Shown piece after piece: positions 58,696-64,000 of a stretch of 64,000 nucleotides of DNA. Source of the DNA: an uncultured delta proteobacterium (GTDB lineage Bacteria; Myxococcota_A; Polyangia; Polyangiales; Polyangiaceae). Below the pieces are notes generated by a model that saw only the letters and a program-made list of their open reading frames with translations, searched no databases and was not told the DNA's origin. The DNA lies in the NCBI GenBank assembly GCA_963716725.1, contig CAVQUB010000015.1, positions 549,943 to 613,942 of the forward strand, given 5' to 3'. Position 1 is the stretch's first letter; the number at the start of each line of letters is the position of its first letter. A program made the position numbers and the translations under genes.

Positions 58696-58766
58696 ATTTC
58701 CGCTGCTTTCGCCTCGCGCGACGCCCCGGGGCGGCGTAAAGTCCGCGGTCCTTGCCCTTCGCAGAG

Positions 58767-61031
58767 GTGACCACCGTGACCGCCGACCGCCCCAAGGACT
58801 TCATTCGCGACATCATCGACGCCGATCTGGCCAGCGGTCGGCACCAGAGGGTCGTCACGCGCTTCCCGCCGGAGCCCAACGGCTACCTGCACATTGGCCA
58901 CGCCAAGAGCATCTGCCTCAACTTCGGCATCGCGCGGGACTACGGCGGAGCCTGCCACCTGCGCTTCGACGACACCAACCCGTCGACCGAGAGCGTCGAG
59001 TACGCCGAGGCCATCAAGGCCGACGTGCGCTGGCTCGGCTTCGATTGGGGCGACCAGCTGTTCTACGCCTCGGACTACTACGCGCGCCTGTACCAGCTGG
59101 GCGAATCACTGATCGAGAAGGGCCTGGCCTACGTCTGCGATCTCGACGAAACGCAGATCAGCGAATACCGAGGCACCATCACCGAGCCCGGGCGACCCAG
59201 CCCGTTTCGCGACCGTTCGGTAGCGGAGAACCTAGACCTGTTTCGGCGCATGCGCGCCCGCGAATTTGCCGACGGCTCCCGGGTCTTGCGCGCAAAAATC
59301 GACATGGCGTCGCCCAACATGAAGCTGCGCGACCCCCTGCTCTACCGCATCAAACACGTCCACCACTACCGCACCGGCGACACCTGGTGCATCTACCCGC
59401 TCTACGACTTTGCGCACCCGCTCTCGGACGCGATCGAGGGCATCACGCACTCGATCTGCACCCTCGAGTTCGAGAACAACCGGGACATCTACGACTGGCT
59501 GGTCGATCACCTGGAGCTGCCCGCGCGCCCGCGGCAATACGAGTTCGCGCGCCTGAACCTGACCTACACCGTGATGAGCAAGCGCAAGCTGCTCGAGCTG
59601 GTCGAGGGCGGCAAGGTCGACGGCTGGGACGATCCGCGCATGCCCACCCTGGCGGGCCTGCGCCGGCGCGGCGTGACCGCCGAGGCGCTGCGCGCGTTTG
59701 CTACCCGAGTCGGCGTCGCCAAGAACAACAGCACCGCCGAGCTGGCCCTGTTCGAGCACACGCTGCGCGACGATCTCAACGAGCAATCGCCTCGGGTGAT
59801 GTGCGTGATCGATCCGGTCAAGGTCGTGATCGAGAACTATCCCGAGGGACAGGTCGAACAGCTCGACGCGGCCTATTGGCCCCACGACGTGCCCAAAGAA
59901 GGCAGCCGCAAGCTGCCCTTCAGCCGCGAGCTGTGGATCGATCGCGCGGACTTCTCCGAGAACCCACCGAAGGACTTCTTCCGGCTCGCCCCGGGGCGGG
60001 AAGTCCGGCTGCGTCACGCCTACGTGATCCGTTGCGAGCGCGTGATCAAAGACGCTGCCGGCGCTGTGACCGAGATCGTGTGCAGCTACGACGCAGCCAC
60101 CCAAGGCGGGGACAGCGGCGGGCGCAAGATCAAGGGCACCCTCCACTGGGTCAGCGCCGCGCAGGCGGTGGACGTCGAGGTGCGGCTTTACGATCGCCTG
60201 TTCAAGGCAGAGTTTCCCGGCGCGGAAGACGGCGATCCCCTCGCCGATCTCAACCCGAGCTCGCTGACGGTGCGGCGCGGGAGCAAAGCCGAGCCCACCT
60301 TGGGCAGCGCTGCCGCAGGCGATCGATTCCAGTTCGAGCGCGAGGGTTTCTTCTTCGTCGATCCGGTTTCTAGCAAGCCCGGCGCGCCGGTCTTCAACCG
60401 CACGGTGAGCCTCAAAGACACCTGGGCCAAGGTCCAACAAAAGGCCGAGCCCAAAGCCGAGCGCGCGGAGAAGACCAAGGGTGCTACCGCGACCGCTCGT
60501 GAGGCGATCTCGCCTGCCGCCCAGGCCCTCGTGGACTCCCACGGCCTCTCGCCCGAAGACGCCCGCGTGCTGGCCGAGCCGGGGCCGCTGCGCACGCTCT
60601 TCGACGCGGCGCTGGGCTCGAATGCCAACGCCCGGGGGCTCGCAGCGTGGATCGTCAACGAGCTGCCTTCGGAGATCCGCGGCGGCGCCGCCCTGCCCTT
60701 CGGCGCTGCCGAAATCGCCGAGCTGGTGACGCTGATCGACGACGGCACGCTGAGCGGATCCATGGGCAAGAAGGTGCTCGCCGACATGCTGCGCGGCGGG
60801 GGCTCGCCCAAGGCCATCGCCGACAAACAAGGTCTCAAGCAAATCGCCGATCCGGCGGCCCTCGCGCCCGTGGTCGACGCTGTGCTCGCGGCCAACGCCG
60901 ACACGGTCGCGCGCTATCGCGCCGGCAACAAGAATGTGCTCGGCGCCCTCACGGGCATGGTGATCAAAGAAACGCGCGGCCGGGCGAATCCAAAGCTGGT
61001 CAATCAGCTCCTACTCGACAGGCTCGGTTGA
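58767..61031 (+). CDS. glnS: glutamine--tRNA ligase fused to a C-terminal GatB/YqeY domain
   Basis: [59 protein letters not shown]-terminal [26 protein letters not shown]. Start is 58752, 58767 or 58776. Confidence 0.95.
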
Positions 61032-61570
61032 CCGCCAAAAAGCCCAAAGAGAAGCCCAGGATCCCCTGGCAAAAGCGCGCCCGCCGCATCGCGATGGAGG
61101 TCGCGATCGTCGTCGGCATCTACTTCGCCATCACCGCTTGGCAGGGCCAGAACCTGCTCGGCTCGAGCACGCCCGCGCCGGCCTTCACGCTGACCGGGCT
61201 CGACGGCAAGCAGGTCGCGCTCGCCGACTTGAAGGGCAAGCGCGTACTGCTGCACTTCTGGGCCACCTGGTGCGGGGTCTGCAAGCAAGAGCACGGCGCG
61301 CTGAACGCGGTCCAAGCGGGACTCGCCTCCGACGAAATCCTGCTCAGCGTGGTCGCCGACGCGGACGATCCCGAAGCGATCCGCAAGTACGCGGCCGAAG
61401 CCGGCATCCGCTACCCCGTGTTGCTCGCCGACGACGCCGTCGTGCGCAGCTACCGGGTGGGCGCCTTCCCGACCAACTACTTCGTATCCAAGGAAGGCCA
61501 GATCACGGGCCACACCATCGGCATGAGCACGCGCGTCGGGATGGGTGCGCGGCTGGGGTGTGCGCGGTGA
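61028..61570 (+). CDS. TlpA-family thiol-disulfide oxidoreductase
   Basis: N-terminal [28 protein letters not shown] overlap with the glnS stop. Confidence 0.88.
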
Positions 61571-61633
61571 GGGTGCGCCAGCCTCCTGCCGGTCCGTTCA
61601 CGTGCGACGCGCCCGGCCAAGTGATATGTCTGG

Positions 61634-61993
61634 ATGACGGTGGAACTGAGTCCGTACATCGAAGGGCTCCGGGCCCGCCGCGAGGCCGAGCGCTGCGCCG
61701 CCGAGGAACGCGCAGCGACGGCGAACGTGGTCGCGCGACGCTGCGCTGAGCACCTGCGTGAACGCTTCGGCGTGACCCGCGTTTTTCTGTTCGGATCGCT
61801 CGCGCGCGGCGAGTTTCACGCGACCTCGGACATCGATCTGGCGGTCGAGGGCCTCCCACCCGAGCAGCTGTTTCGAGCCGGCGCCGATCTCGCCAAGATC
61901 GCGGGGGAGATCGAGGTCGACCTCGTCCCGTTGGAGCAGGCGTCGCCGGGGTTGCGCGCCGAGATCCGAGACGAGGGCGTCGAGTTGCCATGA
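61634..61993 (+). CDS. minimal nucleotidyltransferase (MNT; MntA-like antitoxin)
   Basis: VFLFGSLARG....SDIDLAVEG...VDLV; 119 aa. Confidence 0.88.
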   Translation: MTVELSPYIEGLRARREAERCAAEERAATANVVARRCAEHLRERFGVTRVFLFGSLARGEFHATSDIDLAVEGLPPEQLFRAGADLAKIAGEIEVDLVPLEQASPGLRAEIRDEGVELP

Positions 61994-62147
61994 CCCCGAC
62001 TGCCAACCTCGAGTTGGAGCGGGCGGCTTCGAACTCGACTGGTCGCGGCTCATGTCCTTGGTCGCCAGCGTGGTGCCGACCTTTGGAAATGCACGCGCAG
62101 AGGTCGAGCGGTTTCTGGAATTCCTGGACCTGGCTGCCAGGAACTGA
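61990..62147 (+). pseudogene. internally deleted HEPN (HepT-like) toxin remnant
   Basis: ATGA-coupled start MTPTANLELER joined out of frame at about 62024 to GFELDWSRLMSLV...AEVERFLEFLDLAARN* (62025..62147). Confidence 0.65.
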
Positions 62148-62210
62148 CGGTCCCCTCACCTCGCGACGACGTCGGCTGGGTGTGCGCGTGGCCGCGTCGC
62201 CCGTCACGTA

Positions 62211-62285
62211 TGTCATCGGTCTGTTTCGACACCCATGTTCCCGGTCTTGTTTGTCACCGATGTAGCCGGTCCGGACCGTCGATTT
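62211..62285 (+). repeat. three tandem imperfect 25-bp repeats, putative transposon left end
   Basis: TGTCATCGGTCTGTTTCGACACCCA / TGTTCCCGGTCTTGTTTGTCACCGA / TGTAGCCGGTCCGGACCGTCGATTT at 62211, 62236 and 62261. Confidence 0.6.
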
Positions 62286-62474
62286 GTGTTGAGATCTAAC
62301 CGGCCAATCTCGGGTCGCCGATATGGGCGATTCGTTCTGTTCCCTCTGCCCCGAGTTGGCCCGTGCCGTGTCGAATCAGCCATGATCACGGCGGAAGAAA
62401 GTGAGAGGGCCCGGATGGTCACTTCCGAGCCCTCAGGTCGTCGCGGTGGTCGCGGTCGACGGCGCTACCCTCGC

Positions 62475-62833
62475 ATGCCACCCCGTGCTGCGGCCAGCTT
62501 TCTGCATTCGCAGCGGTGGTCGTTTTTCAGCAGGCGAAGTGTTCTCGCGATGAGTGCCACAACGTGCTCGACGTTTGCCCGGCGTGCAACTACGGCAGGC
62601 TGTTCTGCGAGCGGAGTGCCGACGCTTGTCGCGCGAAGCGTCCGTGCGCCGGTACCGCACGCAGCAAGCTGGGGCACCGACGACGGCGGCGCGAGTGGCT
62701 CGCTGGCGTGAGCAGCAGAAGAATGTAACGCACAGCACGGCCGAAAAGTTGGCCATCGTGAGATGGTCGTCCCGTTCGTAGCCGAGGCCGTCGTTGGGGC
62801 GGCATCGAGCTCGGAGCGGGAGTCGACCCATGA
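62475..62833 (+). CDS. Cys-rich (zinc-finger-like) basic protein, frameshifted
   Basis: Frames give CSRDEC..VCPACNYGRLFC...C, then REASVRRYR...AARVARWRE...VTH. Both ends are inferred. Confidence 0.5.
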
Positions 62834-63206
62834 GCTCGATTTGGATGGGCGTTGCACCTGGGCCCCAGGGAGATGCGCGTGCTCGCAATGGCCGGCCCGA
62901 GCGAGACGATTCTAAAGGCCCGGTTGCTGCGCCCGCCGACGCACCCTCGGGCGTTGCCGCTTCTGCTCGAGGCGCTGGCGCTGTGGCAGGGGCAACCGGT
63001 CCGCGTTGCGCTCGCTGCGGAAGAGCGGGGCGTCGAAGCGGACTTGTCAGCCTACGATGGGATCCCAATCGACGACGGGGCGCCGCTGTACACCGTGGAC
63101 TGGGTACCACCGCCCGCTCGCGTTCGTCGCCGTCATCGCGACCTCGTGCGGCGTCGGTGACTTCTGCGATTTGAGGCAGCTGCTGCTCTTCGGAGTGCCT
63201 CGATGA
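62830..63206 (+). CDS. hypothetical protein, frameshifted
   Basis: MSSIWMGVAPGP + MRVLAMAGPSETILKARL...ALPLLLEALALWQG + GVGDFCDLRQLLLFGVPR*; ATGA overlaps at both ends. Confidence 0.55.
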
Positions 63207-63503
63207 CCGCGCCCAGCCCCGACGGCGCGAGCAGCGCCACGGCCGTGCCTCGCAGCGCTCGAGGTGCGCAATCTCACGCCACTGCTCGACGACGTCTGCC
63301 GTCGTCGTGGCGTCGTTCGGGAAGAGCTCTGCGGCCGAGCGCGGACCTCGAGCGTGTCACGTGCGCGCCAGGAGCTCTGGTGGCTGATCCGCAATCAGTT
63401 CGATCGCCACTACAGCCTTCTCGAGATTGCATCGCTGTTCCGTCGCGACCACACGACCGTGCGCCACGGCATCCGAGCTCATCAGCGACGTGCAGTCCCA
63501 TGA
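63203..63503 (+). CDS. stand-alone DnaA domain IV-like helix-turn-helix protein (frameshift near 63247)
   Basis: EELCGRARTSSVSRARQELWWLIR.....SLLEIASLFRRDHTTVRHGI matches the DnaA C-terminal pattern ARQ..MYL.R...SL.EIG..F.RDHTTV.HA. Confidence 0.75.
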
Positions 63504-64000
63504 CCAGCAGCCTGCAATGCGACCTCGGTACCGCCTTGCGCGTGGTCGCGCACTCGGAGATTGGCCATTCGCTCGTGGATGCCAATGGCGTGGTCGCCGA
63601 GGTTCATGAGTTTCTCTCGGCACTCGGGGTCCGCGGATTATCCCGGCGTACGGTCCGGGCGTACGCATATGATCTGCTGCTGCTCTATCGATCGATGCGT
63701 GCTCGGGGCGCTCGCTTCGGCAGCTCGAGGCACGCGACTTGTTGGGGTTCATCGCAGCGCAACGCAAGGCCGGCGCAGAGCCACGCTCAATCAATCGCCG
63801 GTTGACCACAGCCCGCCTTCTGTATCGCTTCTGGATGAATCGAGAGCTCGGCGTCGGCTCTCGCGTGAGCTTGCCCGCTGCGCACTACAAGGGGCCCGGT
63901 CGTGATCACTACCTCGGCATTCACCGGCTCCGACGACGCGGCGTGCTCAGCTCCGTGTCCGAAGAGCCGCGCAAGCTCGTCGAGAGCGAATGCGTACGTC
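63500..64000 (+). CDS. tyrosine recombinase/integrase, N-terminal SAM-like region (frameshifted, 3'-truncated)
   Basis: EFLSALGVRGLSRRTVRAYAYDL...DLLGFI.....GAEPRSINRRLTTARLLYRF. The catalytic domain lies outside the window. Confidence 0.7.

Follow-up and report, generated by a model that had tools for sequence, protein, structure and literature searches.

A compact, probably mobile two-tyrosine-recombinase element truncated at a contig end in a Polyangiaceae genome

Transposons that depend on two tyrosine recombinases, such as Tn554, strand-biased circularizing integrative elements (or SEs) and the recombinase pairs of actinobacteria, are few in number, and little is understood of how they work. 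In the sections of Van Houdt et al. (2012, PMC3414803) that deal with them, pairs made of a short and a long recombinase form an actinobacterial class related to Tn554, and some Tn554-related elements are described as having no TnpC. A double core-binding domain is reported as special to RitA, a recombinase of the RIT elements, in the part of Smyshlyaev et al. (2021, PMC8138268) that treats this domain. In this paper we describe an element at the end of a 64,000-nucleotide stretch of DNA (hereafter the window, positions 549943-613942 of contig C15 of the Polyangiaceae genome G000), which very likely ends in a damaged, contig-truncated copy of a compact, cargo-free element that moves by tyrosine recombination. 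The element is a new variant of the two-tyrosine-recombinase transposons. An earlier, preliminary description of the window, made from its letters, knew of no described family with this gene order, and none was found in the literature searched, a search that did not extend to most subscription journals or to ISfinder.

Window position 64000 is the last base of contig C15, and the element is cut there by a break in the assembly (35 contigs, 7.9 Mb, approximately 68% GC), such breaks being typical of repeated DNA. The features of the locus are given below in nucleotides (nt) of the window, with the lengths of products in amino acids (aa).

62217..62271, forward strand: 25-nt tandem repeat of the left flank (Tandem Repeats Finder), outside the mobile unit; the TGT units of the preliminary description span approximately 62213-62288
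62289..62296, forward strand: left junction, with TTG (62289-62291) common to the right junction and then the invariant AGATC
62297..62309, forward strand: left terminal inverted repeat TAACCGGCCAATC, its right-end partner lying beyond the contig end in this copy
62310..62515, forward strand: leader separating the first gene from the left end, by eye like that of an IS21-type element on contig C1
62516..62829, forward strand: gene with a GTG start for a Cys-rich, six-Cys, zinc-ribbon-like protein; frameshifted in the window, its true stop uncertain
62830..63206, forward strand: gene for a protein of unknown function, the P0002 family, of 124-136 aa; frameshifted in the window
63203..63503, forward strand: gene for a solo DnaA domain-IV-like helix-turn-helix protein, 99 aa when intact; N-terminal part frameshifted, frame 63264-63503 open
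63500..64000, forward strand: 5' part of the gene for tyrosine recombinase A, 349 aa when intact; frameshift near 63700, ended by the contig end

All four visible genes of the window copy are frameshifted, so the frame correction assumed at the outset was indeed needed. Compared with the other copies described below, this one has approximately 10 single-base insertions or deletions (indels) and one 13-nt gap across 1.7 kb, which may be either decay or consensus errors at the contig end. The genes stand on the same strand in a chain that was reported to be joined by ATGA overlaps at 62830, 63203 and 63500. Start/stop overlaps of this kind are present at 63203-63206 and 63500-63503, but the ATG at 62830 is only the start of the second gene, because the TGA at 62831-62833 is out of frame with the Cys-rich open reading frame (ORF) in the intact copy; there the Cys-rich frame is open for 214 aa and runs over the second gene. 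The AT-rich composition claimed for the locus holds at 62000-62600 (GC 0.61-0.62) and at 63400-64000 (0.635), but between these the GC content is 0.66-0.69, as in the backbone.

A BLAST search of the genome with window 62001-64000 detected three further copies at 96-97.5% identity, on contigs C1, C31 and C33. Copies are named here by contig, C15 being the partial copy of the window, and all four are 96-99.6% identical. Extended from C31, the whole element is approximately 3.68 kb long and carries no cargo; the C1 and C33 copies are clean and the C31 copy has several 1-nt indels. In the intact C1 copy five genes form one operon, in the order Cys-rich protein, P0002 protein, DnaA domain-IV protein, recombinase A of 349 aa and recombinase B of 460 aa, with the two recombinase ORFs 9 nt apart and recombinase B last before the right end. 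Both recombinase genes are complete in the C1, C33 and C31 copies. When the ends are aligned, their common core starts with TTGAGATC followed by TAACCGGCCAATC and finishes with GATTGGCCGGTTA followed by ATTG. The 13-nt terminal inverted repeat is perfect; each of the C1, C31 and C33 copies has it exactly twice, once at either end and in opposite orientations, and no further copy of the arm was found inside the element at 3 mismatches or fewer.

The same organization recurs outside G000. Genome G003 has two copies with the five genes in the same order at 80-83% nucleotide identity, and the order is also kept in the metagenome contigs L020, L021, L022 and L028, down to 58-66% identity of the recombinases, while the recombinase pair alone is found in L006 and G322. 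L020, L021, L028, L006 and G003 keep the 13-nt repeat at their right ends with no more than 3 changes, and TTGAGATC precedes it in all seven left ends seen.

Movement is best documented by the C1 copy, which splits an SMP-30/gluconolactonase-like gene. A search with the C-terminal portion of the interrupted gene found it open (362-396 aa) in four of the six other genomes of the genus, with a partial match containing a stop in G004 and no match in G006, and in the four genomes with an open gene the two G000 flanks of the C1 copy abut. The empty site of G003 reads GACGG-CAAT-CTCTATTTC. CAAT is present once there and at both junctions in G000, which indicates an insertion with 4 nt shared or duplicated (ATTG in the orientation of the element) and places the crossover in ATTG/CAAT. 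Contigs from public sequencing runs diverge exactly at the right-end boundary in three runs, one of which (groundwater) comes from an independent study, and the left junction is crossed without difference by contigs of two independent runs. For the left flank of the window itself, no empty site was found in the six other genomes of the genus. The locus was proposed to be a mobile element, and this is borne out by the additional copies, by the conserved gene order in other genomes, by a right end that matches and by an empty site. A 103-nt contig of run X1 matches only 44 nt of the right end (4 differences), with AT-richer unrelated sequence on both sides, and may be a solo end, or else one that belongs to a related element.

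The right ends also point to a recurrent target. Eight of nine continue as ATTGAC, the exception being C1 with ATTGCC. In C31, C33, G003 and L020 the element is followed on the right by the upstream region of a multi-copy gene, called HNH-like here because its match to HNH is weak and falls narrowly short of the Pfam cut-off (E 3.9e-4). In G003 the left flank carries on the same upstream region. Unoccupied sites have TTGAC at the corresponding place both in G001 (...TTGTTGACGCGTTTC..., 15 matches) and in G000 itself (...TTCTTGACGCGTTTCC..., at 7 places). Taken together, the right ends and the unoccupied sites indicate that the element lands at the TTG(A) of this motif, approximately 190 nt before the ATG of the HNH-like gene, and the gluconolactonase-like site of C1 is a secondary site. 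The HNH-like protein is encoded by a multi-copy repeat of approximately 1.5 kb, found at C33 25846-27406 and also on C2, C3, C4, C5, C6 and C13 of G000, some copies of which begin with (GCCCTC)n repeats. This repeat recalls the REP13E12 repeats of mycobacteria, which serve as a prophage attachment site.

These observations suggest how the element may move. The two recombinases would bind the two inverted arms, and the ends, joined head to tail, would form a classical core site of two 13-nt arms around a 9-nt spacer, so that the element could excise as a circle. Integration would then proceed by crossover in the 3-4 nt (A)TTG common to element and target, with preference for the TTGAC upstream of the HNH-like gene, which would offer many equivalent landing sites per genome, and with occasional use of other ATTG-containing sites such as the gluconolactonase-like gene of C1. 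The three small genes would regulate the element or connect it with its host rather than catalyse its movement.

Several points weigh against this account and have to be set beside it. In classical tyrosine recombination the overlap is 6-8 nt, and the stretch that the junctions have in common here is only 3-4 nt; in addition, the half-sites of attB are unlike the arms of the element. No circular junction or excision joint was detected in the Logan contigs of 4 runs, contigs of this kind dropping rare forms. The family is rare, with members in 3 of 41 genomes of relatives (E<=1e-30) and in 2 of 301 genomes of the phylum (E<=1e-60), G000 being counted in both, and for two of the three helper proteins no function was found. 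Finally, C31 and C33 agree at 98.4% over 5.9 kb, which takes in their flanks, and in a metagenome-assembled genome such as this they may represent a single locus as it occurs in different strains; C15 has flank pieces in common with C31 and C33, and the two copies of G003 have common flanks. The copies are therefore not all independent, and the number of independent insertions is approximately five: C1, the C15/C31/C33 group, G003, L020, and L021 or L028.

Common flanks and the lack of a detected circle would also be expected if the copies had spread only by segmental duplication or homologous recombination, with recombinases that carry out inversion or dimer resolution and not movement. The C1 copy, however, has different flanks and cleanly interrupts a gene for which four relatives show the empty site; in L020, L021, L028 and run X5 the ends are the same but the sequences next to them are unrelated, and the inverted repeat lies exactly at the boundaries. 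We consider spread by duplication alone to be most improbable, and movement by tyrosine recombination to be the better explanation of the copies.

A different origin of the left end was proposed in the preliminary description, in which three 25-bp repeats starting with TGT marked the end of a DDE-type element of the IS21, Mu or Tn7 kind and the recombinase acted as a resolvase or integrase for a DDE transposase encoded downstream. The 25-nt period is real, and Tandem Repeats Finder reports 2.2 copies at 62217-62271 (80% matches, score 66). The third unit as first drawn is weak, sharing only TGTnnCCGGTC, and a fourth is the end of the element itself. A similar 25-nt array is present at the C31 copy, but the repeat has no counterpart at four of the seven left ends seen (C1, G003a, G003b and L020) and must for this reason lie outside the mobile unit, as is also clear from the limits set by the empty site and the 13-nt inverted repeat. 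Elsewhere in the assembly no inverted partner of the repeat was found; a motif scan of the genome gave only one unrelated simple-repeat cluster on C4, and a blastn-short search of the fetched loci gave none. The right end, expected to close in ACA, finishes in ...GGTTAATTG instead. Of the genes that were to be looked for downstream, a second tyrosine recombinase is present, but the complete copies have neither a DDE transposase nor an AAA ATPase (no IstA, IstB, rve or AAA gene). The DDE model retains the existence of the TGT repeat and the fact that the three small genes also occur in true IS21 elements with TGT...ACA ends (L025), and we regard it as scarcely tenable.

A weaker form of the same idea takes the TGT repeat, together with the flank to the right of C31 and C33, for the remains of an older IS21-type shell from which the element evolved by losing istA and istB and gaining the recombinase pair; the repeat would then be a vestige of an IS21 left end. 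Multiple repeats are a feature of IS21 ends, and both kinds of element share their helper genes and have leaders that, by eye, look alike. The repeat, however, bears no resemblance to the left end of either IS21-type element examined, L025 or that on C1 of G000; distant members of the family are without it, and what flanks the element on the right is DNA from upstream of the HNH-like gene, a region that is found unoccupied elsewhere. The left flank of C15, C31 and C33 that bears the repeat differs from that upstream region. A vestigial shell thus seems very unlikely, and we read the repeat as part of the flank of an element bounded by its 13-nt arms.

The fourth gene of the window had been taken for the N-terminus of an integrase, which is correct, for it encodes the N-terminal part of a tyrosine recombinase. 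The Phage_integrase domain is matched by recombinase A at 1.4e-28 and by recombinase B at 5.6e-22. Both proteins consist of a SAM-like and a catalytic domain, and the catalytic residues R, K, HxxR, H and Y are present in both, invariant in recombinase B and readable in all homologues of recombinase A. Recombinase B also has N- and C-terminal extensions (106 and 86 aa) that gave no Pfam match even at E 10. Its residues 9-89 are nevertheless homologous to its own core-binding domain at 104-190 (hhalign probability 97%, E 8.8e-11), and its structure model shows two four-helix units. The core-binding domain of recombinase B is thus duplicated. Its C-terminus bears a helical hairpin.

Two better-known groups of tyrosine recombinases were considered and rejected. 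Against the XerC model the two proteins score 151.9 and 106.2 bits (NCBIfam cut-off 335), and their genes, present in several copies, belong to a mobile unit, so that the proteins are not chromosomal XerC/XerD. As integron integrases they score 65.8 and 53.5 bits (NCBIfam cut-off 265), and with scores so far below the cut-off an integron-like reading of the repeated flank pieces was dropped.

The closest relatives found on plasmids are themselves paired. The best plasmid matches of the two recombinases are encoded next to each other on the same records, from Rhodococcus and Mycobacterium, and in NZ_CP079228.1 a gene for a 351 aa recombinase overlaps one for a 651 aa recombinase. Recombinase A is 35-38% identical to its plasmid counterparts at 144-164 bits (XerD, approximately 95 bits), and recombinase B is 30-35% identical to its own. 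A homologue in Dietzia is followed by a DUF6262 gene.

Of the three small proteins, the first is Cys-rich as described, with an encoded six-Cys motif, but neither the whole protein nor its N-terminal part matches a Pfam or NCBIfam family. The P0002 protein likewise matches no Pfam or NCBIfam family; its AlphaFold model has a mean pLDDT of 56, a wide search of the PDB gave no clear match (best Z 4.8), and the Atlas matches were limited to hypothetical clusters of Myxococcota, apart from a weak lead to IS110 at 0.88. The third protein was rightly recognized as a solo DnaA domain IV, since its intact copy matches Pfam Bac_DnaA_C (PF08299) at E 8.4e-13 and 48.6 bits against a cut-off of 31.5, and the NCBIfam DnaA models match it only over the C-terminal part of DnaA (model positions of approximately 350-415). 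DnaA boxes TTATCCACA are not enriched in the element, with 2 matches at 2 mismatches or fewer against 3.3 expected.

The DnaA domain-IV protein has 47 related clusters of 63-110 aa, and 52 loci with an alignment to these clusters were fetched for context. A pair of tyrosine recombinases lies downstream in 4 of the 52. The context is of the IS21 type in 27, of which 26 have an IstB-like gene just upstream and one is ordered IstA, DnaA domain IV, IstB (L035). Another 7 have an rve transposase and an AAA_22 ATPase upstream, 2 have only rve or AAA_22, and 12 are too short or unclear. The assignments to rve and AAA_22 come from Pfam searches of 37 ORFs, namely 35 picked from 79 long plus-strand ORFs of 11 loci and 2 shorter ORFs of L014. 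The loci with both rve and AAA_22 (L015, L019, L027, L029, L030, L047 and L054, with L038 and L016 in part) make up a third kind of carrier. In L014, which departs from the three main kinds of carrier, the DnaA domain-IV gene stands beside a tyrosine recombinase on the opposite strand and an ORF of approximately 1060 aa that by eye looks like a primase-helicase.

The other two genes follow the same pattern. In those IS21-type loci that reach far enough, the Cys-rich and P0002 genes are found upstream of istA (L025, L033, in part L039, and G000 C1 286.5-289.9 kb), and the three helper genes therefore travel with DDE elements as well as with the recombinase pair. The P0002 protein is 86-89% identical among the tyrosine-recombinase elements (34% in L028) and 33-63% in the IS21-type elements. 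L025 is bounded by true TGT...ACA ends. The IS21-family element of G000 itself, at C1 approximately 286567-289900 (L090), encodes the Cys-rich protein, a P0002 protein (62% identical), IstA with an internal stop, and IstB, and it is ended by the contig end exactly where the DnaA domain-IV gene would follow. A tblastn search of G000 with IstA and IstB of L025 found only C1 287437-289772 and an IstA fragment in C5, and nothing inside the element. The link to IS21 drawn in the preliminary description thus holds for the genes but not for the ends.

IstB, whose gene usually stands just before that for the DnaA domain-IV protein, matches the Pfam Bac_DnaA ATPase at E 3.6e-6, and together the two proteins look like a split DnaA. 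It is conceivable, although we put this forward only tentatively, that the trio is a portable helper module that serves unrelated machineries, DDE transposase and AAA+ ATPase in the IS21-type elements and a pair of tyrosine recombinases here. If so, transposition might be linked through the module to replication or to host factors bound to DNA, and the recombinase element would be a case of one class of transposon capturing the control module of another. The presence of the helper genes in both classes points to an exchange of accessory modules between transposon classes, and the element gives a testable handle on the widespread family of solo DnaA domain-IV proteins. A very small, cargo-free member from another phylum, with clean ends, an empty site and many natural landing sites within a single genome, would also be a convenient test system for transposition by two tyrosine recombinases.

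The sequence to the left of the insertion holds some further repeats and genes. The C15 locus has more than the element in common with C31 and C33: window 61429-61575, which covers the 3' end of an AhpC/TSA-redoxin gene and the bases beyond it, is repeated at C31 22249-22395 (92%), at C31 14832-14924 and in C33. A minimal nucleotidyltransferase gene at 61634-61993 (Pfam NTP_transf_2, 8.4e-13) is followed at 61990-62147 by a short ORF, possibly a truncated partner, 76 nt of which recur at C31 466-541 (96%), and this pair beside the insertion (61634-62147) looks like a pair of the toxin-antitoxin type. Farther upstream, window 58752-61031 encodes a protein of 759 aa of the glutaminyl/glutamyl-tRNA synthetase type with a C-terminal GatB/YqeY domain.

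The element can now be compared with the systems nearest to it. In common with the IS21 family it carries the three helper genes, which in IS21 are divided between the two sides of the transposition genes, the Cys-rich and P0002 genes upstream of istA and the DnaA domain-IV gene downstream of istB. In contrast to IS21 it has neither the DDE transposase IstA nor the ATPase IstB, and its ends are not TGT...ACA. With RIT elements, whose Rit proteins are likened here by description only, it has in common tandem recombinase genes flanked by inverted repeats, and recombinase B has the double core-binding domain of the RitA type. RIT elements, however, consist of three overlapping genes, ritA-ritB-ritC, whereas here (C1, C33, G003, L021 and L028) the inverted repeats enclose only two recombinase genes, and the double-domain recombinase is encoded last, whereas ritA is first.

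The SEs are similar in several respects, as described in PMC10214605 (2023), their proteins again being likened by description. There, as here, one recombinase is ordinary and one larger, both of the RHRY type; the terminal inverted repeats are short, imperfect or perfect, and 13-19 bp long (13 nt here); the target preference is marked, with occasional use of other sites; and no mobilisation genes are described. The core genes of SEs are intA-tfp-intB with srap, whereas no gene lies between the two recombinase genes of our element. The same source describes for SEs and Tn554 a variable 6-bp footprint beside one end. Here AGATC is invariant in seven of seven left ends, which may argue against a footprint of the Tn554 style, and the junctions share 3-4 nt.

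The actinobacterial Tn554-related class is the one to which both recombinases are related in sequence, TnpA and TnpB of Tn554 being likened to them by description only. In the sections of PMC3414803 on that class, as in our element, the recombinase genes are adjacent and on the same strand, the one of typical size first and the longer one second, and conjugation genes are absent. The long recombinase is 460 aa here, with approximately 105 aa taken up by the duplicated core-binding domain, compared with approximately 650 aa in the plasmids and an extension of more than 400 aa in the account of PMC3414803. A TnpC/DUF6262 gene is not among the five products of the element. Where the element departs from this class is in the three unrelated small genes upstream of the pair, in its insertion-sequence size, in its freedom from cargo and in its Polyangiaceae host.

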